Under the pieces are notes generated by a model, which saw only the letters and a program-made list of their open reading frames with translations, did no database searches and was not told the origin of the DNA. From the NCBI GenBank assembly GCA_041662665.1, contig JBAZSC010000003.1, positions 76,333 through 140,332 on the forward strand: a stretch of 64,000 nt of DNA, written 5' to 3'. This document shows, piece after piece, positions 1,528 through 53,218 of this stretch (position 1 is its first letter; each line of letters opens with the position of its first letter). This stretch comes from Patescibacteria group bacterium. Lineage in GTDB: Bacteria; Patescibacteriota; JABMPQ01; JAQVVF01. Position numbers and translations under genes: made by a program.

Positions 1528-3330
1528 ATGAAAAAATTAATCCGAAGAAACAGTTTAATGTTTTTAAGCGCTGTTTTTGTATTGGTACTTTCTTGCTTTG
1601 TTTTTTTGCAGAAAAATGTTCAGGCAGCAACTTGGCAGATTGAGACTGTGGATAATAGTTCGGATAATGTAGGTTCAGATAGTTCTTTGGCTTTGGATTC
1701 TTTTGGTAATCCAAGAATTAGTTATTTTGAAAATGAAAATAAAGCTCTTAAATATGCTTTTTGGAATGGATCTGCTTGGAATATACAAACGGTTGATGAT
1801 ACAGGTAGCGTTGGTCAATATACTTCTTTAGCATTAGATTCTTCTAACAATCCAAGGATTGCTTATCAAGATCTTTCGAATTATAGTCTCAAATACGCTT
1901 CTTGGAATGGCTCTGCTTGGGATATGCAGGCAGTTGATGAGACACATATTATTGCTCGCAGTATTTCTTTAGCATTGGATTCTTCTAACAATCCGAGAAT
2001 TAGTTATTATGATTGGTTTAATGATGATCTTAAATATGCTTCATGGGATGGTTTCGTGTGGGATATTCAGATAATTGATGTTGGTCAGCATCCTTCTCTA
2101 GCTCTAGATTCTTTTAATAACCCACATATTAGTTATTATGATGCTACTCTTGATGATCTCAAATATGCATCATGGAATGGATCTGCTTGGGTTATAGAGA
2201 CGATTGATTCAACAGGTGATGTTGGCGGAGATAATTCTTTAGCTTTGGATTCTTCTAATCACCCACATATTAGTTATTATGATGCTACTCTTGATGATCT
2301 CAAATATGAATCATGGAATGGATCTGCTTGGGTTATAGAGACGATTGATTCAACAGGTGATGTTGGCGGAGATAATTCTTTAGCTTTGGATTCTTCTAAT
2401 AACCCACATATTAGTTATTATGATGCTACTCTTGATGATCTTAAATATGCATCATGGAATGGATCTGCTTGGGTTATAGAAACAGTTGATTCAACAGGTG
2501 ATGTTGGCGGAGATAATTCTTTAGCTTTGGATTCTTCTAATAACCCACATATTAGTTATTATGATGCTACAAATGGTAATCTTAAATATGCTTTTGCTGA
2601 TGTTACTGCACCAATTACAACTGCAAGTCCAGCAGGTGGCATATATTCTTCAACACAATCAGTGGTATTAACAGCTGTTGATGATTCTGCATTTACAACA
2701 TATTATACAACTGACGGATCAGAGCCAACAACTTCTTCAACACAATATACTGTTCTAATTAGTATTTCTTCAGATACAACATTAAAATTCTTTTCCGTTG
2801 ATATTTATGGTAATGTTGAGAATGTAGAAACTGAAATTTATGAATTTGATCGTATTATTTTAACTTCAGAATTAAATAATCAAGCTGTCACTAGTTGTGG
2901 TTTAAAATTCAAGTTTAAGAAATTGCCTACAAAGTTAACTAAAGATAAAAAATACTGGATTAAATGTAAAAAGACTAAGAAGTATCCTAGAAAATGGCAG
3001 AATGCAAAAAAGACTGCCTTGAAGAAATATTGGAAGATAACTACTAATCTCAGAAAATACAAAGTTAAAAAATCTTCACAGAAATTTAAGATTAAAGTAG
3101 CTTTTAAGTATACTAAAGCAGAATTTAAGAAGTTGAGGAAAAGAAATAGATTGGCAAAAGAAAATAATTTGTTTTTGAAATTCAAGATTAAAAAAGGAAC
3201 TTGGAAATCATTATCTGATGTTTGGACTAATGCAAAGATCAAGCGTAATGTGAAAACGAATAGGTTCACTGTCACATATTTTACAAAGTTTCCTAAAAAG
3301 ATTTATTATTTTGGGATTGGATTGAAATAA
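1528..3330 (+). CDS. Secreted modular repeat protein: signal peptide, ~10 beta-propeller-type repeats (…SLALDSxNNPxISYYD…LKYASWNGSAW), chitobiase/beta-hexosaminidase C-terminal-like domain, lysine-rich C-terminal domain
   Basis: N-terminal hydrophobic signal; ~47-aa repeats; 'YYTTDGSEPTTSS…TLKFFSVDIYGN' CHB_HEX_C-like motif; about 160-aa tail with >30% Lys/Arg. Confidence 0.7.
   Translation: MKKLIRRNSLMFLSAVFVLVLSCFVFLQKNVQAATWQIETVDNSSDNVGSDSSLALDSFGNPRISYFENENKALKYAFWNGSAWNIQTVDDTGSVGQYTSLALDSSNNPRIAYQDLSNYSLKYASWNGSAWDMQAVDETHIIARSISLALDSSNNPRISYYDWFNDDLKYASWDGFVWDIQIIDVGQHPSLALDSFNNPHISYYDATLDDLKYASWNGSAWVIETIDSTGDVGGDNSLALDSSNHPHISYYDATLDDLKYESWNGSAWVIETIDSTGDVGGDNSLALDSSNNPHISYYDATLDDLKYASWNGSAWVIETVDSTGDVGGDNSLALDSSNNPHISYYDATNGNLKYAFADVTAPITTASPAGGIYSSTQSVVLTAVDDSAFTTYYTTDGSEPTTSSTQYTVLISISSDTTLKFFSVDIYGNVENVETEIYEFDRIILTSELNNQAVTSCGLKFKFKKLPTKLTKDKKYWIKCKKTKKYPRKWQNAKKTALKKYWKITTNLRKYKVKKSSQKFKIKVAFKYTKAEFKKLRKRNRLAKENNLFLKFKIKKGTWKSLSDVWTNAKIKRNVKTNRFTVTYFTKFPKKIYYFGIGLK
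2121..2575 (+). repeat. Intragenic 141-bp tandem repeat, about 3.2 near-identical copies (encodes 47-aa propeller repeats)
   Basis: Repeat starts at 2121, 2262, 2403 and 2544, giving a period of 141 bp; copies are almost identical at DNA level, unlike the upstream divergent repeats. Confidence 0.85.
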
Positions 3331-3811: not shown

Positions 3812-4894
3812 ATGTTGCAAAATAAAGACGTAACCAAACTTAACCGCTTACAAAGTGATAAAGAAGATGTTGTGACAATTTATTTGAATTGCGATCAAAG
3901 AAGATACAAGCCAGAAGAAATAGAAGAAAAATTAAAAGATTTATTGAAAATTGTTGGAGAAAAATTAGGTGCTGAAGAAACAAAGAAAATTGAAGAATGG
4001 ATTGATTTAAGATTAGATAAAAAAGTTAAAGGCATGGCATTTTATGCTAGTCCGTCTAAAAATTTTTGGTCGATTTATAAATTTCCTTGTCCAATTAAAA
4101 CAGGAGCTTATGTTGAAAAGAATGTTCATATCGAACAATTATTGCAAGTCTTGGATGAATTAGAAAGGTATTGTGTTGTAGTTTGTGACAAGGAAAAAGC
4201 AAAAATATTTACAGTTTTTTTGGGTGTCATTCAAGATTTTAGTTATATTTTTGATGAGTTTCCAGGAAAGCATGATCAAGGTGGATTAGCGCAACAAAAT
4301 CAGGCTTCGCATACTGAAGAACATGTTCGTCAGCATTTGAAAAAAATTAATGAACAATTATTTAAGTTCTGGAAAGAAAAAGGATTTGATAGATTAATTC
4401 TAGCTGGATCAAAAGAGGTCTTGCCGGAATTAAAAAAAGTTTTGCATACGGAATTAAAAAATAGAGTAGTCGGTGAATTTTTTACAGAATTATTTAAGCC
4501 TAACGAACATTTTTTGGAGCAGTCTTTAGTAGTTCAAGAAAAAGTAGAAAGACAGAATGAAAAAAAATTAGTTGATGAATTAAATAACAGCTTGAACGGT
4601 CAATTAGCAGTTGCTGGTTTGAAAAAAGTTTTAGATGCAATTCAAGAAAGAGATATAAAAGCTTTATTAGTGGATTCTAAATTAAGTACAACCGGCAAGA
4701 AATGTCCAAATTGTGATTTTTTGGGATTGGATGAAGTTGTTTGTCCTTATTGCAGTTTTAAAACTGAAGATGTGAAAGATGTTGTTGATGAATTAGTTCA
4801 AAAAGCATATAGCCATCGCGCGAAAATAGAGTTTGTTGAAAATAATGAAGTATTAGCGGGAATGGGTGGGATTGGAGCGATGCTACGGTTCTAG
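3812..4894 (+). CDS. Bacterial eRF1/Pelota-superfamily protein (baeRF1-like) with inserted zinc ribbon
   Basis: C-terminal 'LAGMGGIGAMLRF' matches the Pelota/eRF1 domain-3 ending (…GGIAAILRY); three-domain length of about 360 aa; CPNC…CPYC zinc-ribbon insert; 'HDQGG' in the central domain. Confidence 0.55.
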   Translation: MLQNKDVTKLNRLQSDKEDVVTIYLNCDQRRYKPEEIEEKLKDLLKIVGEKLGAEETKKIEEWIDLRLDKKVKGMAFYASPSKNFWSIYKFPCPIKTGAYVEKNVHIEQLLQVLDELERYCVVVCDKEKAKIFTVFLGVIQDFSYIFDEFPGKHDQGGLAQQNQASHTEEHVRQHLKKINEQLFKFWKEKGFDRLILAGSKEVLPELKKVLHTELKNRVVGEFFTELFKPNEHFLEQSLVVQEKVERQNEKKLVDELNNSLNGQLAVAGLKKVLDAIQERDIKALLVDSKLSTTGKKCPNCDFLGLDEVVCPYCSFKTEDVKDVVDELVQKAYSHRAKIEFVENNEVLAGMGGIGAMLRF

Positions 4895-5000
4895 TACTAA
4901 AGTTATAAAGTTTTTAAAGTTCATAAAGTAAAATTGTTAATTGCTAAATTGTTAGAATTATTTAACAATGGAACAATGGAACAATAAAACAATTTCGACT

Positions 5001-5900
5001 ATGAAACCTATCGAGCAAGATAAATTATTATTTCCAGAAATTCTAGCTCCCAGACCAAAAGAAGCTCACAAAAAATCTGTTGGCAGTGTGATGATTGTTG
5101 CTGGATCTGATGGGATGTCTGGAGCAGCAACTTTATGTTCTGAAGCAACAATGCGTGCTGGAGCTGGAATTGTGCTTTTGGCATTTCCAAAAAGTTTGTC
5201 TGAAATTTATACAAAATTAATTCCAGAAGTTTTGACATTGCCTTGCGATGAGACAAAAGAAAAAACTTTGGCATTGTCATCTTTAGATAAAATTTTGGAA
5301 GAAGCAAAAAAATACGATGTGATTTTGATTGGTCCAGGATTATCTCAAAATAATGAAACAAGAAAATTGATTTGTGAATTGTTTAAAAATCTAAAAAATT
5401 TGCATAAAAATGTGGTTTTAGATGCTGATGGATTAAACGCTATTGCTGGTCAAATAGAATTATTAGAAAAATTAGGTGATAACAAAACTATTTTATTGCC
5501 TCATGCTGGTGAGATGGCGAGATTAACAAATAAAGATGTTGATAATATTCAAAGAGATCGAGAATGGCTAGTTAGAAAAAAGGCAAAAGAATGGAAATGT
5601 GTTTTAGTGATAAAAGGTTATGAAACAGTTATTTCTGATGGTGAAAGAGTAATAATTAATAAATCTGGCGGACCGGAATTAGCAACTGCTGGAACTGGCG
5701 ATGCTTTGGCGGGCATGGTCGCTGCTCACTTTGCAGGAAATGTTAATCTGCCTTTTGAAGCAACTGCAACTGCTGTATATTTGCATGGTTTGGCTGGAGA
5801 TATGGTTAGCAAAAAGTTAGGTGAACGTTCTGTTTTGGCGACTGATGTGATAAATATGTTGCCTGAGGTAATAAAGAAAGTGTTAAATAAGTTAGACTAG
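5001..5900 (+). CDS. nnrD: ADP-dependent NAD(P)H-hydrate dehydratase (YjeF C-terminal / Nnr2 family)
   Basis: GSVMIVAGSDGMSGAA…GPGL…DADGLN…GGPELATAGTGDALAGMVAA motifs. The start is placed at an internal ATG (MKPIEQ) because the upstream part of the ORF overlaps an AACAATGG repeat array. Confidence 0.75.
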   Translation: MKPIEQDKLLFPEILAPRPKEAHKKSVGSVMIVAGSDGMSGAATLCSEATMRAGAGIVLLAFPKSLSEIYTKLIPEVLTLPCDETKEKTLALSSLDKILEEAKKYDVILIGPGLSQNNETRKLICELFKNLKNLHKNVVLDADGLNAIAGQIELLEKLGDNKTILLPHAGEMARLTNKDVDNIQRDREWLVRKKAKEWKCVLVIKGYETVISDGERVIINKSGGPELATAGTGDALAGMVAAHFAGNVNLPFEATATAVYLHGLAGDMVSKKLGERSVLATDVINMLPEVIKKVLNKLD

Positions 5901-5947
5901 TTAGATTGGTTAGACTTGTTATTAGTTAAATTGCTAAATTGTTAAAC
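5891..5947 (+). repeat. 9-bp-period GTTAGAYNN tandem array followed by an 8-bp ATTGYTAA array in the 3' intergenic region
   Basis: gttagacta gttagattg gttagactt gtta… attgctaa attgttaa. Confidence 0.7.
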
Positions 5948-5989
5948 TATTTTTTTGTTTCAATGTTTTAGTGTTTAAGTGTTTCTGTA

Positions 5990-6817
5990 ATGGCAAAGTT
6001 TTCAAAAACATTTTTTATTTATGAAGCTGTTTTATTTTTGATAACGCAGTTTTTGGGTTTGTATCTTGGCTGGCGGCTTTTTCAAATTGAAGAAGTAAAA
6101 GAATTAGTAGCGAAGCAGTCATATTCATTATGGCAATTTTTAATTGCATTTGCTGTTGGAACTGTAGTTGTTTTATTTGTAATAAAATATGCAAAAAGCA
6201 GAATAATATTTTCTGGCTTTTTTTATATTTTGATATTTTTGGGTTGTGTTGCTTTTTTTGATGTTTTTGCTTTAGGATATTTAGGATTGGGTTTGGCTTT
6301 GTTGGTTGTAATATTGCGAAGATTTATGCCTTCTGTTTTGACACATAATCTGGCAATTATTTTAGCAATTTCTGGAATTAGTTCGTATATTGGTTTGTCA
6401 TTTTTGCCTTTGCAAATAATTATTATGCTTGTTATTCTATCTATTTATGATTTTATTGCAGTTTTCAAAACTAAACATATGGTTTTGATGTTTAAAAAAA
6501 TGATGGAAAATGGCGCTAATTTGTCAATTATTGTACCTAATAAATTGATCGGTTTTTTGGCTGGAATGGATAAAGCAAAGCCAGGTCAAGATTTTATTTT
6601 TCTTGGAACTGGAGATTTGGCTTTTCCAATTATATTTGCTGTTTCAGTTTTAAGAAATAGTTTGTTAAGTTCGATTTTAGTGATTGCTGGAGCTTTGTTG
6701 GGAGTGATGGCAATAAATATCTATTTTTATTTTAAGAAAGAGAGAACTGCTTTTCCGGCATTGCCACCAATAACAATTGGCTGTATAATTGGATATCTGG
6801 TTTCATTATTTTTTTAG
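5990..6817 (+). CDS. Presenilin/signal-peptide-peptidase-like intramembrane aspartyl protease (A22 family homolog)
   Basis: Polytopic membrane protein with 'YD' (SIYDFIAV), 'GxGD' (LGTGDLAFP) and 'PAL' (FPALPPI) motifs in the canonical order and spacing (about 50 aa apart). Confidence 0.55.
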   Translation: MAKFSKTFFIYEAVLFLITQFLGLYLGWRLFQIEEVKELVAKQSYSLWQFLIAFAVGTVVVLFVIKYAKSRIIFSGFFYILIFLGCVAFFDVFALGYLGLGLALLVVILRRFMPSVLTHNLAIILAISGISSYIGLSFLPLQIIIMLVILSIYDFIAVFKTKHMVLMFKKMMENGANLSIIVPNKLIGFLAGMDKAKPGQDFIFLGTGDLAFPIIFAVSVLRNSLLSSILVIAGALLGVMAINIYFYFKKERTAFPALPPITIGCIIGYLVSLFF

Positions 6818-6826
6818 CTAAAAAAT

Positions 6827-7423
6827 ATGTTGAGAAAAATGCCTAGTTTGTTGCAGATAAAAAGCTTTATGAAGAAAGTGGCGAAAGAAAATGGAATTTC
6901 GGAACAAGTTGATGAAACTTGGGATCATGAGACTCGAGTTTGGAAATTTGCAGAAAAAATTGCAAAATTAGCAATTAAAAATGGCAATAAAGTTGATTTG
7001 GATTTTTTGAAGATTGCTTGTTATACTCATGATTTGGGCAGAATGGTTTCTGGAAGCAAAGCTTCAAAGGAATTAGAGCCAGCAATTTTTCATGGAATGC
7101 GAGGTTATAAATTGGCGAAAGAGCAAGGTTGGCCAGAGAAATTGGCAAGGGTTTGCATTCGGCATATGGGAGGTATCGGACAGACAAAGGAAGTGAATAA
7201 AAAAATAGGATTAGGAAACAAAGATACTTTGGCAAAAACAATTGAAGAAAAGATTTTAGCTTATGCTGATTGTCGGACTTTTTTTAATGTAGAAAAAGGT
7301 AGGGCAGACATTTATCCTTTTGATGTAACTTATCGCAGATTTAAAGTTTATCCTAGAGCAGGAGAATTATTGTTAAAAAATAAAAAGTTTATTGATAAAA
7401 TAACTGGTGGAAAATTGGATTAA
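6827..7423 (+). CDS. HD-domain phosphohydrolase
   Basis: H…HD motif (CYTHDLGR), downstream His (IRHMGGIG) and Asp. Confidence 0.55.
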   Translation: MLRKMPSLLQIKSFMKKVAKENGISEQVDETWDHETRVWKFAEKIAKLAIKNGNKVDLDFLKIACYTHDLGRMVSGSKASKELEPAIFHGMRGYKLAKEQGWPEKLARVCIRHMGGIGQTKEVNKKIGLGNKDTLAKTIEEKILAYADCRTFFNVEKGRADIYPFDVTYRRFKVYPRAGELLLKNKKFIDKITGGKLD

Positions 7424-7572
7424 AATGCGATAATATAAATGCGAGTTAAATAGATTAGACTGATTTGATAAAAAATAAAATTAATAAAATGTTTGATTGC
7501 TAGATTGTTGAATTGTTAAATTGTTAATAATTTAACAATGAAATAATTTAATAATTTATTGTAAATAATAAA

Positions 7573-9684
7573 ATGACAAAATTTAACAAAATTTTTATTT
7601 GGAGCGTTGTTTTTGTGTTAACAATTTTTGGCTTGGCTAATTTTAGCCAAGCTAGAACATGGACGCAAAGCGGGACAGATGGATTAGGAGATACAGCTAA
7701 TTGGAATTTCTATGGTTTTCAGACAATTGGCAATTCACTTTTTACGGGATCTTTGTATGTGGGTCCTGCTAATGGCGCTCAAGCTTTTACAACGTCAGAT
7801 GGATCAACTTGGGTTTCAGTTGATGCAACTGGTTTTGGAGATGGCAACAATTATTCTTATGGAGGCGGAAATACAACATTTAACAATAATGTTTATTTTT
7901 GTTTGAGAAATATTACAACTGGAGCAGAGGTTTGGTCAACATCAAATACTGGCGTTTTGTCTGCTTCACAAGTTAATGTGGATGGTTTTGGAGCTGGCAA
8001 TCAAAATGCTGATTGTTATTTCTTGAAAGAATATAAGGGTATTTTGTATGGCGGAACGGAAAATACAACTGCAGGAGGTCAAGTTTATGCTTATTCTAAT
8101 GGAACAACTTGGACACAAACAAATACTAATGGTTTTGGCAGTATTAATAACGATATTTTTTATTCAGGTGAGGTTTTTAAAAACTACTTATATGTTGGAA
8201 CACGCAATGCTACAACTGGCGGACAGATTTGGCGGACAGATGGAAGTACTTGGTCGCAGGTAACTGGCGATGCATTTGGAGTTGGCAATGCTAGTTATGG
8301 AATTATGACTCTGCAAACTTTTGGTAATTATCTTTATGCTGGTATTGCTAACAATGGCGGTGCGCAAATTTGGCGAACTAGCGATGGTGTTAACTGGACA
8401 AATACTGGTTTTAGCAGCACTTTTAGCTTGAGTATTCAAGGTATGTATGCAACTGACAATTTATTGTTTGCTGGGACCTCAAATCTTGGCAGTGGAGCAG
8501 GTGTTTTTGAAACAAGCGATGGTACAAATTGGATTCAAAATAATGTTGGAGGTTTTGGTACAAGCGGTATTATGGGCAATATTATAGTAAGGGGTATGGG
8601 GTTATTTGGCGATTATTTGTATGCTGGCGCATTTAAAGCTAATGGAGGTACAATTTGGAAAACCGATATAATTCCTCCGATTGTGACAGCTAGCCCAGAT
8701 AATAAAGCTTCTAGAAAAAAGATTAAAGTGACATTATCAAGCAATGACAGTTCAGGATCAATTTATTACACAACTGATGGTTCAATACCGACAACTGGAT
8801 CAAATTTGTATACTGGACAGATAACTTTTAAAAAGACTAAAATTTTAAAATTTATTGGTGTTGATACTGAAGGCAATGTGAGTTCAGTTCAAACGAAACA
8901 TTATGTTGTAACAAGCTATCCATATTTATATAATACTAACAAAGAATTGCGCGAGAAGAATGGGACAATAAAATTTTATAATATTTCAACTTCTAAATAT
9001 GGCAAGAAATTTAAGCCGTTTTCTTCTGGTTTGAAATATTTTACGGTTGCTGATCCAAATCAAGATAATAAGACAGAAATTATTGCAAATAATGGAAATG
9101 AAATTAAGTTTTATAATTCTAAAAGAAAGCTAAGATATACTTTGAAAAGTGCGAATGATTATTTAACATTTGGTGATATTAATAATAGCAAAAAAGAAAA
9201 AACTTTGATTGCAAAAGCTAAGACTTTAAAAATTTATAACAAGACAAGTTTAGAGAAAACATTTAATTTTTCAGAAAATATAAAAAGTATTGCAGTCGGC
9301 AGAGTATTGAAATATGATCAGCCTTTGATAATTGTTGGTTTTGATGATCAGATTAAATTATATAAATATAAAAATAAAAGTTTAGTTTTGAAAAAAACAA
9401 AGTCATTAAACTACAGTAAATTATTGGCTTATGATTTGGATACTAATGGAACTGATAACATTATTTATTCTAAAAACAAAAAAGTTTATGTATTAAATAA
9501 GAAGTTGAAGAAAAAGTTTTCTTTTAGCGCTGGCGGAAGTTTTTTAGCAGTAGCAGATGTCAATGATGACTATTTATTAGAAATTTTAGCAAGTACTGGA
9601 AAGAAATTAAAAACTTATTCAAATGAAGGAATTTTGTTGAATAGCAAAAAAGATAGCGGGAAATGGATTGGAGCAAGATTTTAA
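7573..9684 (+). CDS. Secreted modular repeat protein: signal peptide, Thr/Gly/Trp-rich beta-propeller-like repeats (…GGQIWRTxDGxxWTQ…GFG…), CHB_HEX_C-like domain, Lys-rich C-terminal region
   Basis: Signal peptide; iterated ~45-aa repeats; 'IYYTTDGSIPTTGSNLYTGQI…LKFIGVDTEGN' motif; basic C-terminal 300 aa. Confidence 0.65.
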   Translation: MTKFNKIFIWSVVFVLTIFGLANFSQARTWTQSGTDGLGDTANWNFYGFQTIGNSLFTGSLYVGPANGAQAFTTSDGSTWVSVDATGFGDGNNYSYGGGNTTFNNNVYFCLRNITTGAEVWSTSNTGVLSASQVNVDGFGAGNQNADCYFLKEYKGILYGGTENTTAGGQVYAYSNGTTWTQTNTNGFGSINNDIFYSGEVFKNYLYVGTRNATTGGQIWRTDGSTWSQVTGDAFGVGNASYGIMTLQTFGNYLYAGIANNGGAQIWRTSDGVNWTNTGFSSTFSLSIQGMYATDNLLFAGTSNLGSGAGVFETSDGTNWIQNNVGGFGTSGIMGNIIVRGMGLFGDYLYAGAFKANGGTIWKTDIIPPIVTASPDNKASRKKIKVTLSSNDSSGSIYYTTDGSIPTTGSNLYTGQITFKKTKILKFIGVDTEGNVSSVQTKHYVVTSYPYLYNTNKELREKNGTIKFYNISTSKYGKKFKPFSSGLKYFTVADPNQDNKTEIIANNGNEIKFYNSKRKLRYTLKSANDYLTFGDINNSKKEKTLIAKAKTLKIYNKTSLEKTFNFSENIKSIAVGRVLKYDQPLIIVGFDDQIKLYKYKNKSLVLKKTKSLNYSKLLAYDLDTNGTDNIIYSKNKKVYVLNKKLKKKFSFSAGGSFLAVADVNDDYLLEILASTGKKLKTYSNEGILLNSKKDSGKWIGARF

Positions 9685-9741: not shown

Positions 9742-9834
9742 AAAAATATTTAATTATATAATTGACAATAATGATTTAAAGATTTAAGATACTTTGAGAT
9801 GTTTTCCCCAGATTGGGAAGGAGAGGAGGGAGAA

Positions 9835-10845
9835 ATGACAGACAGAAAACAGGTAGTTCTTTCAGGAATTAGAGCGACAGGACAAATGCATTTGGGCAAT
9901 TACCTTGGAGCAATGCGTCATTTTGTGGAATTAAGCAGAGATCCTAGCAAGCGATGTTTTTTCTTTGTGGCTGATTTGCACACATTGACGACTTTGAAAG
10001 ATCGGCAACAAATGGCAAAGCATTTGCCAAATATCGTTTTGGATTATTTGGCTGCTGGAATTGATCCTAGGGTTGCAACTTTGTATGCTCAGTCATCTGT
10101 GCCAGAAATTTCCGAGCTTTTTTGGCTATTGTGCAATTTTATGCCAGTTGCTGATTTGTTGCTTTGTCCGTCTTACAAGGATAAGGCGTCCAAGAATCCT
10201 CAAATTGCTGGTTTGTTGAATTATCCAATTCTGATGGCTGCTGATATTTTGGCTCCCAGAGGCGAATTGATTCCTGTCGGCCATGATCAAATTCCGCACG
10301 TTGAAATGGCAAGACAGATTGCTCGTGATTTTAATCGAGAGGTTGAAGAAGAGCTTTTTGTAATTCCAGAACATTTGGGTGGCGAATCAATTACTGTGAA
10401 GGGGTTGCATGGTGAAGGAAAGATGGGTAAAAGTGAAAAGCCGGATTCAACTATTTTCTTGACTGATAGCTATGATATTGTTTGGGGTAAATTGCGGACA
10501 GCAACTACTGATCCAGATAGGAAAAGAAGAAATGATCCAGGAAATCCAGCAGTTTGCAATGTATTTACTTTGCACACACTTTTGTCTCCAGATGAGAAAT
10601 TCCGAGAAATGGCCGAAGGTTGTCGAACTGCTTCGATTGGATGCATTGATTGTAAGAAAGAATTGATGATTCATTTGTGGAAATTGTTGGCTGAATTTCA
10701 AGCAAATCGCCAGCGAATTTTGCAGAATGGAGGCATTGATTATGTTAGGAATGTTCTGATTGAAGGTGGAAAAAATGCAAGGTCTGTGATTCAGTTTACT
10801 GTGCAAAGAGCACAAGAATTGATGGGTGTAGCAACTTATCTTTGA
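9835..10845 (+). CDS. trpS: Tryptophanyl-tRNA synthetase
   Basis: Class-I aaRS motifs HLGNYLGA (HIGH-like) and KMGKS (KMSKS). Strong SD GGAGAGGAGGG upstream of ATG 9835. G+C visibly higher than flanking genes. Confidence 0.9.
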   Translation: MTDRKQVVLSGIRATGQMHLGNYLGAMRHFVELSRDPSKRCFFFVADLHTLTTLKDRQQMAKHLPNIVLDYLAAGIDPRVATLYAQSSVPEISELFWLLCNFMPVADLLLCPSYKDKASKNPQIAGLLNYPILMAADILAPRGELIPVGHDQIPHVEMARQIARDFNREVEEELFVIPEHLGGESITVKGLHGEGKMGKSEKPDSTIFLTDSYDIVWGKLRTATTDPDRKRRNDPGNPAVCNVFTLHTLLSPDEKFREMAEGCRTASIGCIDCKKELMIHLWKLLAEFQANRQRILQNGGIDYVRNVLIEGGKNARSVIQFTVQRAQELMGVATYL

Positions 10846-12711: not shown

Positions 12712-13093
12712 AACTTAAAACTTTAAAAATCGTTGACCTGGAAAAAGTAAGTTAGTTATTTTTAAAAGTCTGCTTTCGCTAAAGCTACAGCAGACGAAGC
12801 GAATAAGGGATAGTGAGAGCCTTATAAAAATACTAGCTGAAAATGGATCCAGCGAGATGATAAGTTAAATACTTATCCGGTTGCCTCCGTAACCATAGGC
12901 TAACTGATATCTTGAATCCACCTTTGCTAAAGCTTCGGTGGACAAAGGAGTCAGTAAGTGATCAGTGTTTTTGCACTGATAAACAAGGTGGTAACACGGG
13001 AAGACTTCTCGTCCTTGAATACTTTTTAGAAGTATTTTAGGATGAGAAGTTTTTTGTTATGATCGATCTTTCACAACGCAAGGAGGAGAGAAG
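12712..13093 (+). promoter_or_regulatory. About 380-nt structured 5' leader of the RPH-like gene, containing two copies of the CCGCC-hairpin element and several other stem-loops
   Basis: Promoter TTGACT-N17/18-TATAAT at 12677-12708. Hairpins at 12769-12801, 12858-12882 and 12916-12950; a weak terminator-like hairpin at 13018-13040; SD AAGGAGGAG at 13080. Confidence 0.45.
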
Positions 13094-15619
13094 ATGAAAG
13101 TTCTATACCTGAGAAATCTGATGGGTTTGGAAGTGTCGCAGATTGGTGGCAAAGCATTTAATTTGGGCAAGTTAATTATGGCTGGATTTAATGTACCAAG
13201 TAGAGGTTTTGTGTTAGATGTGGATGTTTTGGACAGTTGGCCAAGTGGACGTGAAGAAGTAGCAGATTTTTTTGTAGATTATTTTGGTGGACAAGTCGTA
13301 GCTGTGAGAAGTTCAGCAGTAGCAGAAGATTCTGGATCAGCTTCTTTTGCTGGTCAGTACAAAACTACCTTGCATGTTAGGACTAGGGAAGAATTTTTGC
13401 GAGCAGTTGATGATTTCGTTGCTGGTTTGCTTGATGATGGCATTCAAGCATATCAGACAGTAGTTAAGCAGAAAGATTCAGGTCGACGGCAGGCAGCTTT
13501 GATTGTTCAGGAAATGGTTGAAGCAGAAATTGCTGGTGTGCTTTTTACGGTTAACCCACTCGATGGTTTGGACGAGATGATGATTACAGCAGCTTCTGGT
13601 ATTGGTGAGGCATTGGTATCTGGTCAGGTGACTGGAGATACATATGTTGTTGATAGAGATGGGATGCTCAAAAAGATGGTTATCGGCGGTGTAAAAAAAG
13701 ATTTGCGAGATGGTGTTGGCTTGATGACAAATAGAGATGTTGCTGAGAGAATTTTGGATGATAGTTTGCTGATGTATTTAGTAAAAATTGGCAAGCGGGT
13801 TGAAGAACTATTCCAATGTCCGCAAGATATCGAATGGGCAATTGTTGGTTCGCAGATTTTTTTGCTGCAAGCTCGACCAATTACGGCAATGTCTACTTTG
13901 GGTTTGCAGCGTCAAAAAGTTATTGATGATCTTGGAAATTCTTTTGAAAAAGAGAGAGCGAGATTGGAAGAGTTAGGTGTTGTATTGGCAACTGATTGTT
14001 TTTCTGATCAAAATATTGCTGAGCTTTTGACTCGTCATCCTACGCCAATGGCTTTTGGAGCATTCTGTTATATTTTTGCTGATGGCGAAGCTGGAATCCG
14101 GCTTGGTCGCAATCAAATGGGTTATGAGATTGGGTCAGAACTTGATCATGGTTTTTTCAGATTAGTTGGTGGTCAACCTCGTTGTAGTATTGTTCATGAT
14201 GCTTTTACTTATCGGATTGCTGGAATTCCGTTGTCGGATTATGCGATTTTGGTGAGATATTATTTGGAGAAAATTGCTGAAGATTCTAAAATGGCAAATT
14301 ATCCAGAAGTAGTGCTCTATAAGCAAGATCCGAGTTTGGAATTTCTGACAGAATTGTTTGGAGCAGAAAAAGCACAGTTCTATCGAGTGGCTTTTGATCG
14401 ATTTTTTACTGGATTAGCAGTGTTGATTGAGCAAACGGTGTTGGAGATGAAGACATTCGAAGATGATTTTAGGGCTTATATTGCAAGAGAGAAAGTCAAG
14501 ATGGAAAGTTTGGACATGAATCTTCAAGCTAATATTGCTCTATGCATGGAAATGTTTGATCATCTGCGAACTGTTGCTTGTGTGATGTTTGTTAAAGTTG
14601 CACGTTTGGGATTTTTTGCTTATGCACGACTTCGAGAAAAAATGGCATTGCATTATGGTAAAGAAAAGGGCGAGCAGTTGTTAGCAACATTAACTAGTGG
14701 ATTGGATAATGATCCGTCTTTGCATTTCAATGTTTGTTTGGCACAGTATCGTGATGGTCAAATCACTTTTTCTGAACTTTTGGAAAGATATGGTCATTTG
14801 GGTGCGAATGAACTAGAGGTTTCAGGATTGCGTTATCATGAAGATTCAAGTTTGTTGGAGCGTTACGCAGAACAGATTGCTGGAGATCCTCGTGTTGAAT
14901 TGGCACGCAGAAAGGCAGAATGTGATAAGGTTCGTGCAACTGTGGCAACGGAATTGGGAGAAGAAGTGGCTAGCTGGGTTGAGGTAGCGCGACAGTATTT
15001 GGCTGGTAGAGAATTAATCAAATATCTTTATTTGATGGAATATGATTTAGTTCGGCAAATGTTACTTAGAATCGAAAAGATTTTACATTGGGAAGATGAT
15101 TTGGTCTTCTGTCTTTATCCAGGAGAGATTCCAATGTTGCAATATGATAGCGAACGTATCCATAGAAAAGCAGTTGCGCGTTTGCAGCGTAGGCGTGAGC
15201 AAATGAATATCTATGTTCCGCCAGTAATTTTCTCTGATGATTTGGAGAGGATCGGTCAATCTCCATATCAAGCATCTGATAAGATTTTGACTGGCTTTGG
15301 AGTGACAGATCAGGTGGTGACTGGAGAGGTAGTTAAAGTGGCTGATCCAAGGGATAGAAAACAAATTGCCAAGCTTTTTGCAGGTTGTGTTCTAGTGACA
15401 ATGACAACTGATCCTTCTTGGGCCCCATTGATTGCAGCGATTGGTAGTAACGGTGGTTTGGTGACTGAGATTGGAGGTCCTTTGGCGCATGGGGCAATTG
15501 TAGCTAGAGAATTGGGAATTGGCGCTGTCTTGGATGTTACTGGAGCAATGCAGATTTTGCAGGATGGAATGAGAGTAGAGGTTAATGGTCCTTTGGGAGT
15601 TGTGAAGATTTTGGATTGA
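13094..15619 (+). CDS. PEP-utilising-enzyme family protein with PPDK-N ATP-grasp domain and C-terminal swivelling His domain (rifampin-phosphotransferase / PEP-synthase-like)
   Basis: N-terminus 'QIGGKAFNLGKL…GFNVPSRGFVL'; C-terminus 'LVTEIGGPLAHGAIVARELGIGAVL' (PEP-utilisers mobile-domain His); no PEP-binding TIM barrel; about 840 aa like the Rph family. Confidence 0.7.
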   Translation: MKVLYLRNLMGLEVSQIGGKAFNLGKLIMAGFNVPSRGFVLDVDVLDSWPSGREEVADFFVDYFGGQVVAVRSSAVAEDSGSASFAGQYKTTLHVRTREEFLRAVDDFVAGLLDDGIQAYQTVVKQKDSGRRQAALIVQEMVEAEIAGVLFTVNPLDGLDEMMITAASGIGEALVSGQVTGDTYVVDRDGMLKKMVIGGVKKDLRDGVGLMTNRDVAERILDDSLLMYLVKIGKRVEELFQCPQDIEWAIVGSQIFLLQARPITAMSTLGLQRQKVIDDLGNSFEKERARLEELGVVLATDCFSDQNIAELLTRHPTPMAFGAFCYIFADGEAGIRLGRNQMGYEIGSELDHGFFRLVGGQPRCSIVHDAFTYRIAGIPLSDYAILVRYYLEKIAEDSKMANYPEVVLYKQDPSLEFLTELFGAEKAQFYRVAFDRFFTGLAVLIEQTVLEMKTFEDDFRAYIAREKVKMESLDMNLQANIALCMEMFDHLRTVACVMFVKVARLGFFAYARLREKMALHYGKEKGEQLLATLTSGLDNDPSLHFNVCLAQYRDGQITFSELLERYGHLGANELEVSGLRYHEDSSLLERYAEQIAGDPRVELARRKAECDKVRATVATELGEEVASWVEVARQYLAGRELIKYLYLMEYDLVRQMLLRIEKILHWEDDLVFCLYPGEIPMLQYDSERIHRKAVARLQRRREQMNIYVPPVIFSDDLERIGQSPYQASDKILTGFGVTDQVVTGEVVKVADPRDRKQIAKLFAGCVLVTMTTDPSWAPLIAAIGSNGGLVTEIGGPLAHGAIVARELGIGAVLDVTGAMQILQDGMRVEVNGPLGVVKILD

Positions 15620-16320: not shown

Positions 16321-16325
16321 AGGGG

Positions 16326-16398
16326 CGGGCCAGGAGGGATTCGAACCCACAGCATTCGGTTTTGGAGACCGACGCTCTACCATTAGAGCTACTGGCCC
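16326..16398 (-). tRNA. tRNA-Trp (anticodon CCA)
   Basis: Reverse-complement cloverleaf: acceptor GGGCCAG/CTGGCCC, D-arm GCTC-TAATGGTA-GAGC, anticodon stem TCGGT/ACCGA with loop CTCCAAA, T-loop TTCGAAT. Confidence 0.8.
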
Positions 16399-16482
16399 GC
16401 AAGGTGCAAGAAAAGTAAAGAACGTGTATTTATGATGTCATCATATATCTTTGATTTTGCTTTGTCAAATTTGACTTGTGGA

Positions 16483-43905: not shown

Positions 43906-46860
43906 ATGAAAAAAATATTTGTATTTGGAGCAGTATTTATTGCTTTAATTTTGTTTTGTTTTTTTAATTTCATACCTATTAAAAATGTATTGGCTTCGGA
44001 ATCATGGAAAGCAATGGATGGTGGTACAAACAATGAAATAACTTCTTTTGCTGTTTATAATAACGAATTGTACGTTGGAGGAAGTTTTACAGAAGTTGGT
44101 GGAATTAGTGCAGATTATATTGCCAAATGGAATGGTTCAACTTGGAGTGATGTAGGGGGTGGAACGGATAGTGATGTTTTAGCAATGGCTGTTTATAATG
44201 GCGAACTTTACGTAGGTGGTTATTTTTCAGTGGTAGGAAGTGTTAGTGCTAATTATATAGCAAAATGGGATGGCAACACTTGGAGCGCTATTGGTACTGA
44301 ATCGATGGATAGCAATGTGTATGCTCTTACAGTGTTCAATAATAAACTTTATGTAGGCGGAGATTTTACTACAATTGATGGGGTAAATCCTGTATTATAT
44401 ATTGCATATTGGGATGGTAATACTTGGAGTGCTGTTGGAGCTGGAGTAGACTATGATATTTATGTTTTGGCTGTATATAATAATGAGTTGTATGCTGGAG
44501 GAGATTTTTTGAATGCTGGTGGGGCTAGCGCAAATTATATTGCAAAATGGGATGGTAATACTTGGAGTGCTATTGGTACTGGAACTGATAATACAGTTTA
44601 TACAATGGCAGAATATGATGGAGAACTTTATGTAGGCGGGAGATTTGATACAGCTGGTGGAGTGAGTGCCGCAAAAATTGCAAAGTGGGATGGCAATACT
44701 TGGAGTGTTGTTAGTACTGGTTTTGACAACACTGTACTAGTGCTTTCTGTTTATAATAATAAGCTTTATGCAGGAGGATATTTTAAAAATGCTGGTGGTG
44801 CTAATGCTAATTATGTTGCAAAATGGGATGGTGATGCTTGGAGCGGAGTCGGAACAGGTATGAATAGCTACATAAATGCATTTGTTATTTTTAACAATGC
44901 TTTATATGCTGGAGGTAATTTTGAGTTTATTAATGTTTTAAAAGCTGATTTTGTTGCAAAATGGGATAGTGATACTGCTGATTGGAGCTCAGTTGGTACA
45001 GGTATGAATGGTGCTATATATGATTTTGTTGTATATAATGCTGAGCTTTATGCAGCTGGTACTTTTTCTAATGCTGGAGGCGTAGTTGCACATTATATTG
45101 CAAAATGGGATGGTAATACGTGGACTGCATTGGCTTCAGAGGTAAATAACATTGTTTATACGTTAGTTGTTTATAATAACGAGCTTTACGCTGGTGGATA
45201 TTTTACCCAAGCTGGTGGGGGTAGCGCAAATTATATTGCAAAATGGGATGGAAATTCTTGGAGTGCACTTGGAACAGGAATGAATCAATATGTATACACA
45301 ATGGCTGTTTATAATGACGAGCTTTATGCTGGTGGAACTTTTGCTACCGCTGGCGGAGTTAGTGTTAACTATATTGCAAAATGGGATGGTAATGCTTGGA
45401 GTGCGCTTGGAACAGGAATGAACAGTTATGGTTTCGTAAATACTTTGGCAGTTTATAATAGTGAACTTTATGCAGGAGGAAATTTTACTACTGCAGGCGG
45501 TATTAGTGCTTTGCGTATTGCAAAATGGGACGGTGATTCCTGGAGCGCACTTGGAGTCGCGGGTACTGGGATGAATTCTTCTGTTGGTGCTTTAATCGTT
45601 CATAACAATGAACTTTATATTGGAGGTTATTTTACTACCGCTGGAACTGTTAATCCAGCTAATCGTATTGTGAAATGGGATGGTAATAATTGGTTTGCTT
45701 TAGGAAGCGGGGTAGAAGGACAAGGCGGTGCTGGGGTATCTAATCTTGATATCTATAATGATCAACTTTATGTAGCAGGAAATTTTACTTCTGCAGGTGG
45801 TATTGATGCATTTCGTATTGCAAAATGGGACGGTAATTCCTGGAGCGCAGTTGGAAATGGAGCAACTGATAGTGTGGCAGCAATGACTGATTACGATGGA
45901 GAGCTTTATGTTGGTGGTTTGTTTTACTATGTTGATGGTGAATCGGTACTACATATTGCATATACTGATAGTATTGTCCCAGTTACGACTGCTACTCCAG
46001 CAGGTGGAACTTATGATGATTCTGTGTCAGTAACTTTGGCATCCGATGAGACAGCAACAACTTATTATACTATTGATGGGTCTACTCCAAGCACATCTTC
46101 TTTAGTTTATTCTGATCCAATTGTGATTTCTCAAGATACAACGCTTAAATTTTTTTCTGCAGATTCCTTTGGTAATGAAGAAGTTGTGAAAACAGAGAAT
46201 TATGTTATAAATATAACACCAACTCCTACTCCAGAGCCGACTCCTACACCAACGCCAACAATATTATTTAATGAAAAAATAAATTTAAAGAATATTACAT
46301 TAAATACTATTTATCGAAGCCCAATTGATAATGCTGATCTTTTATTTTATAGGTTGCCTAAACAAGGATCGATAAAAGATTTGTATATAAAATTGATTCG
46401 AAATAAAACAAAATATATTAATGGTTTTACAAAAAAGAATAGTCATCCAGGTTATTTAAAGTTGTTATCAAATATAGGTACAGTTGACAAAGCATATTAC
46501 AATAAAGTTGATAAGCATATTAAATTTAGAATTTCAATTCGTTATTCAAAAAATAAATTAAACAAAGCAAATATCAAAGAAAAAGATTTGAGACTATTTA
46601 TAAAAGATAGAGATAATAATTGGCGAGGACCATTTACGATATATCAAAATAGAACTACTCATATAATAAAATTTAAGATCAGAAATTATTTGGTTAAAAT
46701 TCCAAATACAGCTACTTTGGCAAATGAAAATAGGACTTTTGCTCCATGTTTTTATTTTAAGACAATTGAAAAAATAAAATTTGTGATTGCGAAGAAAAAT
46801 GCATTGTCTAAATTAAGCAAGCTTGAGACTGTAGAAGATAAAAATTTGATTTTTGAATAG
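43906..46860 (+). CDS. Giant secreted modular protein: signal peptide, ~17 'YIAKWDGNTWS…NELYAGG.F..AGG' beta-propeller repeats, CHB_HEX_C-like domain, (PT)n linker, Lys-rich C-terminal domain
   Basis: Repeats of about 50 aa; 'TTYYTIDGSTPSTSS…TLKFFSADSFGN'; 'PTPTPEPTPTPTPT'; basic C-terminal domain of about 200 aa. Confidence 0.7.
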   Translation: MKKIFVFGAVFIALILFCFFNFIPIKNVLASESWKAMDGGTNNEITSFAVYNNELYVGGSFTEVGGISADYIAKWNGSTWSDVGGGTDSDVLAMAVYNGELYVGGYFSVVGSVSANYIAKWDGNTWSAIGTESMDSNVYALTVFNNKLYVGGDFTTIDGVNPVLYIAYWDGNTWSAVGAGVDYDIYVLAVYNNELYAGGDFLNAGGASANYIAKWDGNTWSAIGTGTDNTVYTMAEYDGELYVGGRFDTAGGVSAAKIAKWDGNTWSVVSTGFDNTVLVLSVYNNKLYAGGYFKNAGGANANYVAKWDGDAWSGVGTGMNSYINAFVIFNNALYAGGNFEFINVLKADFVAKWDSDTADWSSVGTGMNGAIYDFVVYNAELYAAGTFSNAGGVVAHYIAKWDGNTWTALASEVNNIVYTLVVYNNELYAGGYFTQAGGGSANYIAKWDGNSWSALGTGMNQYVYTMAVYNDELYAGGTFATAGGVSVNYIAKWDGNAWSALGTGMNSYGFVNTLAVYNSELYAGGNFTTAGGISALRIAKWDGDSWSALGVAGTGMNSSVGALIVHNNELYIGGYFTTAGTVNPANRIVKWDGNNWFALGSGVEGQGGAGVSNLDIYNDQLYVAGNFTSAGGIDAFRIAKWDGNSWSAVGNGATDSVAAMTDYDGELYVGGLFYYVDGESVLHIAYTDSIVPVTTATPAGGTYDDSVSVTLASDETATTYYTIDGSTPSTSSLVYSDPIVISQDTTLKFFSADSFGNEEVVKTENYVINITPTPTPEPTPTPTPTILFNEKINLKNITLNTIYRSPIDNADLLFYRLPKQGSIKDLYIKLIRNKTKYINGFTKKNSHPGYLKLLSNIGTVDKAYYNKVDKHIKFRISIRYSKNKLNKANIKEKDLRLFIKDRDNNWRGPFTIYQNRTTHIIKFKIRNYLVKIPNTATLANENRTFAPCFYFKTIEKIKFVIAKKNALSKLSKLETVEDKNLIFE

Positions 46861-51391: not shown

Positions 51392-53218
51392 ATGAAAAAA
51401 CTATTTAGTTTGGGAGCGGTTTGTGGTGTGCTGGTATTTTTACTATTGGGACTAAATGTAAATGCAGCGACAATTCAGAATTATTTGAATGATTGGCAAT
51501 TTGATTTTGAGGCTTATGGTGATACGCGGACAGGTGATACTGCGCATCAAGAAGTGGTCAATCAAATGGTGCCATTAAATTCCGATTTCGTGCTGCACGT
51601 TGGAGATTTGGTCAATAGCGCTTCTTCATTACCTGAGTGGCAGACTTTTTTCAGTATCACAGCTAATTTAATGAATAAACCAATCAAAAATGGTTTGACT
51701 AGAAATTTCTATCCTGCAGTTGGTAATCATGAAGTGCCGGTGGCTGATTATCAAGCACAATTTAATAATATTCCGACTTATTATTCGTTTGATTATTTTG
51801 GTTGGCATTTTATATCGATTGATAATTATGAAGATTTTGCTACCGGCAGTACGCAGTATAATTGGCTAGTCAATGATTTGAGTGCTAATCAAAATAAAGA
51901 AATAATAGTTTGGTTTCATGAGCCGGCTTATAGCTCTGGTCATCATGGACCGAATGCTACTGTGCATGACTATTTGATTCCTTTATTTGAACAATATGGA
52001 GTAGCTGTTGTTTTCAATGGTCATGATCATATTTATGAACGAACTTATCCGATTTATCAAAATGCAGTTAATTATAATAATGGAATTGTTTATGTTGTGA
52101 CTGGTGGTGGGGGAGCACCATTGGGTAATTTTACAACTGGAAATTGGTGGACAGCGGCTGGAGGAAGTGAGTACGAATTTGTTTATTTACAAGCAACAAG
52201 TTCAAAGCTTTATGCTAATGTAGTAAATAATAATGGCACGCAGATAGATAATTTTACAGTTGATTTGAGAAAAAATAGCAAATATTTAATGACTTCTCTG
52301 GAACAGGATGGTCGAAAAAATATTAAGAAATTTAATACTTCAGGAAGTTTATTGAGTGATGGTTTTAAAGCTTATTCTAAAAAGGCTAAAAACGATGGAG
52401 TGAGAATCGCCAGCGGGGATGTAAATATGGATGGCAATGATGAATTAATTGTTGGTTCGGGTTCTAATTCTAAATCTTGGGTTAAAGTTTTTGATATAAA
52501 TGGAAATTTGTTGAAAAAAATTTATCCTTTTAAGAAAGATTATTTAGGAGGTGTTGATGTGGCAGCTGGTGATGTTAATGGTGATAATATTTCGGAAATT
52601 GCAGTGTCAAAATTTACAGGAGAAAGTTCAAAGGTTAAAATTTTTAAATATCTTGATAAATCAGTAATTTTTGATAGAATTATTTATCCAAAACTCGAGT
52701 CCGCAGTAGCCATAACTTTAGGTGATGTCGATAATGATTGGACTGATGAATTGATTACTGGGACAGGAACAGGTGTAAGATCAAAAATTAGATTTTATAA
52801 TATTCTGACGACTAATAAAAAGGGTTCGAAGATTGATAAAGAAATTAAACCGTTCAAGAAAGATATTGTGGATGGTTTAGATGTTGCTTGTGGCGATATA
52901 AATAATGATGGTAATTTGGATATCGGTGTATCAAAATTAGCTGGTGATAAAGGTAAGGTCAAGGTTTTTGAATATAGCACCAAAGATTTAATTGAGGAGA
53001 TTAATGTTTTTCGTAAGGAGCATGTAAGTGGAGCCAATCTAGAGATGTTCGATGTTAATTCTGATGGCAAAGCCGAAGTAATTGCTAGCCAAAGATTAGC
53101 AGAAGATAGTCGGCCAACAGTTAAGATTTATGATAATAATAAAAGTTTATTAGAAAAGTTTTCTGCTTATAGTAAAAAAACTAGTGGAGGAGTAGTGGTA
53201 GTAGGTGTAAATTATTAA
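51392..53218 (+). CDS. Secreted calcineurin-like metallophosphoesterase fused to C-terminal FG-GAP/VCBS repeats
   Basis: Signal peptide; 'LHVGDLVN', 'GNHE', 'GHDHIYER'; four 'GDVNxDxxxEI' FG-GAP-type repeats. Confidence 0.65.
   Translation: MKKLFSLGAVCGVLVFLLLGLNVNAATIQNYLNDWQFDFEAYGDTRTGDTAHQEVVNQMVPLNSDFVLHVGDLVNSASSLPEWQTFFSITANLMNKPIKNGLTRNFYPAVGNHEVPVADYQAQFNNIPTYYSFDYFGWHFISIDNYEDFATGSTQYNWLVNDLSANQNKEIIVWFHEPAYSSGHHGPNATVHDYLIPLFEQYGVAVVFNGHDHIYERTYPIYQNAVNYNNGIVYVVTGGGGAPLGNFTTGNWWTAAGGSEYEFVYLQATSSKLYANVVNNNGTQIDNFTVDLRKNSKYLMTSLEQDGRKNIKKFNTSGSLLSDGFKAYSKKAKNDGVRIASGDVNMDGNDELIVGSGSNSKSWVKVFDINGNLLKKIYPFKKDYLGGVDVAAGDVNGDNISEIAVSKFTGESSKVKIFKYLDKSVIFDRIIYPKLESAVAITLGDVDNDWTDELITGTGTGVRSKIRFYNILTTNKKGSKIDKEIKPFKKDIVDGLDVACGDINNDGNLDIGVSKLAGDKGKVKVFEYSTKDLIEEINVFRKEHVSGANLEMFDVNSDGKAEVIASQRLAEDSRPTVKIYDNNKSLLEKFSAYSKKTSGGVVVVGVNY

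Follow-up and report, generated by a model that had tools for sequence, protein, structure and literature searches.

A 64 kb stretch of DNA from a Patescibacteria group bacterium (contig JBAZSC010000003.1), called the window here and used for all coordinates, carries an open reading frame (ORF) that very probably encodes a functional, stand-alone intramembrane aspartyl protease. The protein falls in the presenilin/signal-peptide peptidase (SPP) superfamily (MEROPS A22), within its PSH-like branch (PF06550). The ORF (5990-6817, plus strand) is intact from its ATG to its stop codon and comprises 275 codons plus the stop.

Sequence motifs and family assignment

An earlier, sequence-only reading of this DNA had pointed to YD, GxGD and PAL motifs, in that order and about 50 residues apart, as the mark of an A22 protease. 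All three strings read as it quoted them (LSIYDF, LGTGDLAFP and FPALPP, the last at residues 255-260), and the measured spacings, 55 residues from D154 to D209 and 47 from D209 to P256, agree with its estimate. Taken as a sequence pattern, this combination lies far beyond chance expectation. The HMM search that the same reading had proposed was run against Pfam, where PF06550 ("Signal-peptide peptidase, presenilin aspartyl protease") was the one family returned; its E-value was 1.3e-19, and its 71.2 bits clear the gathering cut-off of 23.9. The alignment runs end to end, joining residues 15-274 of the protease to model positions 3-279 of 283, and no match to PF01080 (presenilin), PF04258 (SPP/A22B) or PF01478 (prepilin peptidase) was found at E≤1.

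When the whole of the PDB was searched by sequence, the sole match was PSH, a presenilin homologue that has been crystallised, from the archaeon Methanoculleus marisnigri (entries 4hyc, 4hyd, 4hyg and 4y6k; E=1.2e-14). Both catalytic aspartates are aligned in this match, which pairs LSIYDFIAVFKTKHM with LAVYDAISVYRTKHM, LGTGDLAFP with MGMGDLIMP, and PALPP with AGLPP. On these results the protease is a genuine member of the PSH-like branch within the presenilin/SPP superfamily; it is neither a PSH equivalog nor a presenilin proper, a eukaryotic SPP or a prepilin peptidase.

Predicted structure and membrane orientation

An AlphaFold2 (AF2) model built from a 40-sequence alignment reached a mean predicted local distance difference test score (pLDDT) of 92.4 and a predicted TM-score (pTM) of 0.91. 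It contains nine long helices (residues 6-32, 47-67, 71-91, 97-112, 116-137, 140-161, 207-222, 225-248 and 258-274). D154 is placed within helix 6, GTGD (206-209) at the N-terminal end of helix 7 and PAL before helix 9, so the two aspartates fall in transmembrane helices (TM) 6 and 7, where the sequence-only reading had expected a topology prediction to put them. Between TM6 and TM7 the model adds a short helix (163-173) and two beta-strands (179-183 and 202-206), the latter strand abutting GxGD. In the model, helix 163-173 corresponds to TMD6a of PSH and strand 202-206 to its beta2. These two PSH elements, which span H171-E177 and A213-G217, respectively, make up the hybrid sheet that engages the substrate in PSH models and in gamma-secretase-substrate structures (PMC9282858).

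A Foldseek search of the PDB with this model returned PSH chains at the top (E=8.5e-8 to 7e-7, TM-score ~0.6-0.71; 4hyg, 4y6k and 4hyc led with ~0.65-0.71), next human SPPL2a (9k92; E=9e-6), and then many PSEN1 chains of gamma-secretase (E ~1e-4 to 1e-3, TM-score ~0.6-0.68). All 15 matches with E≤1e-3 were to PSH, SPPL2a or PSEN1, and the remainder was noise (E>0.5, TM-score <0.2) except for a low-resolution gamma-secretase chain, 4uis_B (E=3.7, TMq 0.52). The presenilin/SPP family identity is therefore borne out by the PF06550 match, the PSH match, the AF2 fold and the Foldseek results alike.

The orientation of the protein in the membrane was examined with the positive-inside rule in 79 homologues, using helix boundaries taken from the AF2 model. 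The N-terminus together with loops 2-3, 4-5, 6-7 and 8-9 holds on average 19.5 lysine and arginine residues, against 2.7 on the opposite face, and the TM6-TM7 loop by itself averages 8.9. This asymmetry therefore predicts an N-in/C-out topology with a cytoplasmic TM6-TM7 loop, which is the orientation of presenilin and PSH, whereas eukaryotic SPP is inverted. The protease is thus predicted to be oriented like presenilin and PSH and opposite to SPP.

Conservation and selection

Among the same 79 homologues, the residues of the two catalytic motifs are invariant (Y153, D154, G206, G208 and D209), as is P213. The PAL region is nearly so, with P256 conserved in 74 of the 79, A257 in 76, L258 in 78 and P259 in 78, and a signature A-V-x-K-T-K-H-M following TM6 is nearly invariant across the homologues. 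Ratios of nonsynonymous to synonymous substitution rates (dN/dS) were 0.11, 0.12 and 0.13 in comparisons with orthologues at 88%, 86% and 71% amino acid identity, which points to strong purifying selection on the gene. Together, the invariant catalytic residues and a dN/dS of about 0.12 lend indirect support to Asp-dependent proteolysis. The positions of these elements, of the gene downstream, and the loci discussed below are collected in Table 1.

Table 1. Positions of the protease gene, its predicted structural elements and its downstream neighbour, with the loci that link RtcB to a protease gene
Feature	Position	Strand	Evidence
Presenilin-family intramembrane aspartyl protease gene (PF06550/PSH-type), complete	5990..6817	+	ORF, Pfam, PDB sequence match, AF2 model, Foldseek, exact database identity
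Predicted TM6, residues 140-161, bearing the first catalytic motif	6407..6472	+	AF2 helix H140-161; hydrophobic segment 137-154
YD motif Y153-D154, first catalytic Asp; pairs with the PSH YD (LAVYDAISVYRTKHM)	6446..6451	+	PSH alignment; invariant 79/79
Predicted Lys/Arg-rich cytoplasmic TM6-TM7 loop, residues 162-206, including the KTKHM signature	6473..6607	+	AF2 secondary structure; homologue Lys+Arg content
GxGD motif G206-T-G-D209, second catalytic Asp, at the cytoplasmic start of TM7	6605..6616	+	PSH alignment, AF2, invariant 79/79
Predicted TM7, residues 207-222	6608..6655	+	AF2 helix H207-222
PAL motif extended to PALPP, residues 256-260, just ahead of TM9 (258-274)	6755..6769	+	AF2, homologue conservation
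HD-domain protein gene, starting 9 nt past the protease stop codon	6827..7423	+	same order in L081, L082
RtcB-linked loci, archaeal: L063, L068, L077, L078, L080			
RtcB-linked loci, bacterial: L008, L009, L019, L020; L010, L013, L018, L021, L037, L038, L040, L042, L065, L066, L069, L072			

Proposed mechanism and substrates

By analogy with PSH, the protease would act alone, without cofactors of the nicastrin, APH-1 and PEN-2 type. The single-pass helix of a substrate would dock from the side and unwind at its cleavage region by pairing with the strand ahead of GxGD, and D154 and D209 would activate a water molecule so that the peptide bond is hydrolysed within the bilayer. PSH itself needs no cofactor to cut substrates derived from APP (PMC2947513). 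Because a presenilin-type orientation would make N-out/C-in (type I) membrane-anchor stubs likelier targets than signal-peptide remnants, such stubs are probably what the protease prefers. In a small-genome Candidate Phyla Radiation (CPR) cell, the role of the enzyme is likely to be the housekeeping or regulatory clearance of type I stubs, and the export of many large surface proteins makes stub clearance a plausible housekeeping need.

Several observations weigh against parts of this interpretation. The match to NF041679 (IMP_arch_presen), the NCBIfam equivalog model for archaeal PSH (E=4.3e-23), scored 82.2 bits and so fell below the 125-bit equivalog cut-off, and identity between the protease and PSH is ~22-24%. 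The protein may therefore not be functionally equivalent to PSH, and by the NCBI standard it ranks as a PSH homologue but not as a PSH equivalog. No family-wide substrate, regulator or partner gene adjoins the protease gene in 80 related loci and the window. The type I substrate preference derives solely from topological analogy and is the weakest step in the argument.

Alternative explanations

The protease could instead be the signal-peptide peptidase of the cell, clearing, in the manner of eukaryotic SPP, type II-oriented remnants after signal peptidase I and perhaps replacing SppA or RseP in a reduced genome. This is a different function for a member of the same family, and we regard it as possible but rather unlikely. 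It is opposed by the predicted N-in/C-out topology with its cytoplasmic TM6-TM7 loop, the reverse of eukaryotic SPP, and by the absence of a PF04258 match at E≤1, and a presenilin-type orientation argues for type I over type II substrates. What speaks for it is that the Pfam family PF06550 itself is named after SPP, that the Haloferax homologue HVO_1107 is a predicted candidate for this function (PMC8305020), and that the window encodes SecA, SecD and at least three large secreted proteins, of which the two inspected start with classical signal peptides. A non-proteolytic relic that retains the presenilin fold and acts as an ion-leak channel or scaffold is very improbable, for the two aspartates and the two GxGD glycines, along with the L-P of the PAL motif, show no or almost no variation in 79 divergent homologues, and the gene is under strong purifying selection, whereas a pseudo-enzyme is expected to lose its catalytic residues. 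Presenilins and PSH have been reported to show channel-like activity, and to our knowledge no substrate of the protease has been described; both points would suit such a relic.

The remaining two candidates concern the identity of the protein and the origin of the DNA, and we attach almost no weight to either. The first, a type IV prepilin peptidase (A24, PilD/FlaK-like), would have the GxGD motif in common with the protease; these enzymes are the second family of GxGD aspartyl proteases and are widespread among bacteria, and type IV pili are a common trait of CPR bacteria. This identity is effectively refuted by the Pfam and Foldseek results: only PF06550, and not PF01478, was returned at E≤1, and there is no prepilin peptidase among the Foldseek matches. 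The YD and PAL motifs, the nine TM helices and the intramembrane position of the aspartates are likewise of presenilin type, whereas the aspartates of prepilin peptidases lie in soluble regions outside the membrane core (PMC2947513). Archaeal DNA mis-assembled or mis-binned into the window, or a gene acquired very recently from an archaeon, might be suggested by the archaeal provenance of the characterised family members and by the interleaving of DPANN and CPR sequences in a rough tree. The host, however, is a bacterium. The contiguous 64 kb (GC 32%) bears a T-box leader, a SurA-type peptidyl-prolyl isomerase, LexA, DinB, an L,D-transpeptidase, SecA and SecD, together with a cluster of the division and cell wall (dcw) type (S11 carboxypeptidase, MraY, Ddl, FtsQ, Mur ligases, FtsW, MurG and MurB). 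The protease gene has the same GC (0.30) and third-position GC (GC3, 0.21) as its neighbours, and the gene order of the locus recurs on independent contigs from other samples and, at 88% identity, on a contig of 654 kb (CAZNOH010000001.1). Public records of identical and near-identical proteins are labelled Patescibacteria, and more distant CPR homologues adjoin RuvA, Mur ligase or DnaE genes. Archaeal contamination is thus excluded, and recent transfer is effectively refuted by the bacterial context and composition, while an ancient inter-domain transfer of the protease gene is possible.

Comparison with known systems

The closest characterised relative is PSH, also known as MCMJR1 or MmIAP, of Methanoculleus marisnigri JR1 (4HYG, 4HYC and 4Y6K), with which the protease has in common its PF06550 membership and nine-TM fold. 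The two proteins are alike in YD followed by KTKHM after TM6, in the GxGD motif opening TM7, in the L-P-P ahead of TM9 and in size (275 and 301 amino acids), and the protease would, like PSH, be a stand-alone prokaryotic protein without gamma-secretase partners. They differ in that the protease has a canonical P-A-L where PSH has A-G-L, in their hosts (a peptidoglycan-bearing bacterium with ester-lipid membranes as opposed to a methanogenic archaeon), and in the rough tree, where the protease lies in a CPR/DPANN clade well apart from PSH.

The resemblance to PSEN1 in gamma-secretase (PDB 6IYC and 6IDF) extends to the presenilin fold (TM-score ~0.6-0.68), the placement of YD, GxGD and PAL in TM6, in TM7 and before TM9, the predicted N-in orientation with a cytoplasmic TM6-TM7 loop, and a beta-strand that immediately precedes GxGD and has a substrate-pairing counterpart in PS1. 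In contrast to PSEN1, the protease gave no PF01080 match at E≤1, and identity is 11-16%. Nicastrin, APH-1 and PEN-2 are neither present nor expected, and the TM6-TM7 loop is short (~45 amino acids), with nothing to suggest activation by endoproteolysis. Eukaryotic SPP and SPPL proteins (SPPL2a, 9K92) match the protease in fold (Foldseek E=9e-6) and in motifs, and the protease would, by analogy, be cofactor-free as they are. Some homologues of the protease have precomputed PF04258 matches, whereas the protease itself has none; its predicted orientation is the opposite one, and it is without luminal or PA domains and endoplasmic reticulum-retention signals. The type IV prepilin peptidases (A24; PilD and FlaK), which we take to belong to the same Pfam clan as PF06550, are also polytopic di-aspartyl membrane proteases with a GxGD motif and are common in bacteria and archaea. 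They differ from the protease in helix number and motif context, and no match to them was obtained by either HMM or fold.

Distribution and prior knowledge

The annotation of the protease is already known, and the present analysis adds nothing as annotation: the identical protein, GenBank MFA6296675.1, is already named as a presenilin-family protease, and its IMG name is "presenilin-like A22 family membrane protease". One genome per GTDB species was scanned, and at least 567 of these genomes contain confirmed relatives; most are from Patescibacteria, and DPANN archaea are interleaved among them. The best 80 of these at least 567 are overwhelmingly Patescibacteria, the bacterial labels being Parcubacteria, Staskawicz-, Nealson-, Yanofsky-, Uhr-, Azam-, Falkow- and Buchananbacteria, with a DPANN minority of Woese-, Nano- and Micrarchaeota and Diapherotrites/Iainarchaeum. 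Scanned exhaustively with HMMER, 1.84 billion representatives clustered at 50% identity yielded 1,108 relatives with E≤1e-3, of which 558 reached E≤1e-10 and 125 reached E≤1e-30.

The sequence-only reading had held that the family is otherwise known mainly from eukaryotes and archaea. This stands for the experimental literature but not for the databases, where the GenBank name exists and relatives are encoded in hundreds of Patescibacteria genomes. The family was framed as eukaryotic and archaeal in the founding PSH paper, which also stated that the physiological substrates were unknown (PMC2947513). In Haloferax, a review of membrane proteases gives the function of the homologue as "Unknown" (PMC9263693), and HVO_1107 is listed elsewhere only as a predicted signal-peptide-peptidase candidate (PMC8305020). 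In the literature that could be searched, no discussion of presenilin homologues in CPR bacteria was found; the matches concerned the gut microbiome in Alzheimer's disease or unrelated work, and none of the CPR/DPANN papers retrieved mentions presenilin.

At least several hundred genuinely bacterial Patescibacteria species carry well-conserved members of the family that are under purifying selection, though the experimental literature treats it as eukaryotic and archaeal, and this bacterial clade is experimentally untouched and apparently undiscussed. A bacterial member working in ester-lipid membranes could serve as a convenient model enzyme for the presenilin mechanism.

Linkage with RtcB and likely exchange between CPR and DPANN

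In 21 of the 80 related loci, which come from both domains, a same-strand gene for the RNA ligase RtcB is found no more than 4 kb from the protease gene (Table 1); the window locus has no RtcB neighbour. Of the five archaeal-labelled loci, four have RtcB directly upstream with a gap of 32-57 nt, and L078, the fifth, has a gap of 719 nt. The distance of RtcB upstream of the protease gene is 1-3.7 kb in several Parcubacteria-type loci, and in one bacterial group (including L009) the gene order is protease-archease-RtcB. L009 is genuinely bacterial because DnaE is adjacent, and L074 genuinely archaeal because Cdc6/Orc1 and the PolD small subunit are adjacent. The linkage of RtcB and the protease may have arisen by block inheritance or by transfer between DPANN and CPR. 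The RtcB ORFs of the archaeal-labelled loci are very long (2-5 kb) and possibly contain inteins.

A rough neighbour-joining tree, rooted on PSH with 100 bootstraps and drawn from a sample biased towards relatives of the query, placed the window protein with L001-L003 at 100% bootstrap and then with L004, L006 and L007 at 79%. Archaeal- and bacterial-labelled sequences were reciprocally monophyletic in 0 of the 100 bootstraps, which makes inter-domain exchange of the protease gene likely, and the deep branching, including a DPANN-basal placement, had bootstrap values of 26-37%. Some of the taxon labels in the titles of third-party annotation (TPA) records ("Saccharibacteria", "Gammaproteobacteria") are unreliable, and title-based taxon counts are accordingly not dependable. 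Suspect labels include those of L008, L009, L019, L067 and L071, and many TPA_asm loci titled "uncultured Candidatus Saccharibacteria" are suspect too. The "Gammaproteobacteria" loci have CPR-like gene content and group in the protease tree with Buchananbacteria, Falkowbacteria and other Patescibacteria-labelled sequences.

The interleaving of CPR and DPANN sequences and the partly common RtcB and archease neighbours fit gene flow between two ultra-small symbiont radiations. A bolder proposal, which we hold to be unlikely, is that the CPR protease was not acquired sporadically but forms part of an ancient DPANN-CPR gene exchange, possibly as a block with RtcB and archease, its neighbours in both domains, and that in reduced, episymbiotic cells it became the main intramembrane protease for clearing or processing surface-protein anchors. 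If true, this would be the first system of presenilin type in bacteria, and presenilin enzymology would gain a tractable model in a bacterial membrane.

Gene neighbourhood and other features of the window

For the neighbourhood analysis, ORFs within 4 kb of the protease gene were clustered across the 80 related loci and the window. The HD-domain gene immediately downstream is probably co-transcribed with the protease gene in this lineage. The order NAD(P)HX dehydratase, protease, HD-domain protein is common only to close relatives, and the HD-domain pairing is absent from the conserved neighbour clusters of distant loci. No membrane partner gene beside the protease is conserved in the 80 loci. 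The neighbours that do recur elsewhere (RtcB, archease, Mur ligase, NIF3, Elp3-like, DUF763, methyltransferase and RuvA) are cytoplasmic housekeeping genes and are therefore implausible as cofactors or substrates. Seven apparent "second copies" of the protease proved to be archease genes that had been chained into the cluster through one fused ORF call. A promoter and terminator scan of positions 4800-7700 gave nothing above shuffled expectation.

Two genes upstream of the protease, the ORF at 3812-4894 (plus strand) encodes an eRF1-like protein of baeRF family 10 ("bacterial archaeo-eukaryotic release factor"; E=2.5e-24), with weaker matches to the aRF1 and mycobacterial ribosome-hibernation-factor families. 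It is a further module of archaeal/eukaryotic type in this bacterium. Three large proteins (1528-3330, 7573-9684 and 43906-46860, all on the plus strand) contain a CHB_HEX_C_1 plus Fn3_assoc module and are probably cell-surface proteins of the episymbiont. The first two flank the protease locus, and their products start with classical signal peptides; the product of 1528-3330 also has a very Lys-rich C-terminal region of ~170 amino acids, and that of 43906-46860 has beta-propeller (DUF5122/Rax2-like) repeats.

Further downstream, a full-length T-box leader (12724-13019, plus strand; RF00230, 99.8 bits) lies 74 nt upstream of an ORF (13094-15619, plus strand) for an 841-amino-acid enzyme of the phosphoenolpyruvate (PEP)-utilising type, composed of PPDK_N and a PEP-utilizers mobile domain. 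This protein scores far under all NCBIfam cut-offs for PEP synthase and rifampicin phosphotransferase, and its gene class is an unusual one for T-box control. A tryptophanyl-tRNA synthetase gene (TrpRS, 9799-10845) and a tRNA-Trp gene (16323-16399, minus strand) are located nearby. Finally, three genes (51392-53218, 58156-59874 and 60110-61513, all on the plus strand) encode FG-GAP repeats joined to different catalytic domains: calcineurin-like phosphoesterase, polysaccharide deacetylase and YkuD L,D-transpeptidase. These fusion genes are interleaved with those for MurB, SecA and SecD, and they represent an unusual repeated architecture for cell-wall enzymes.

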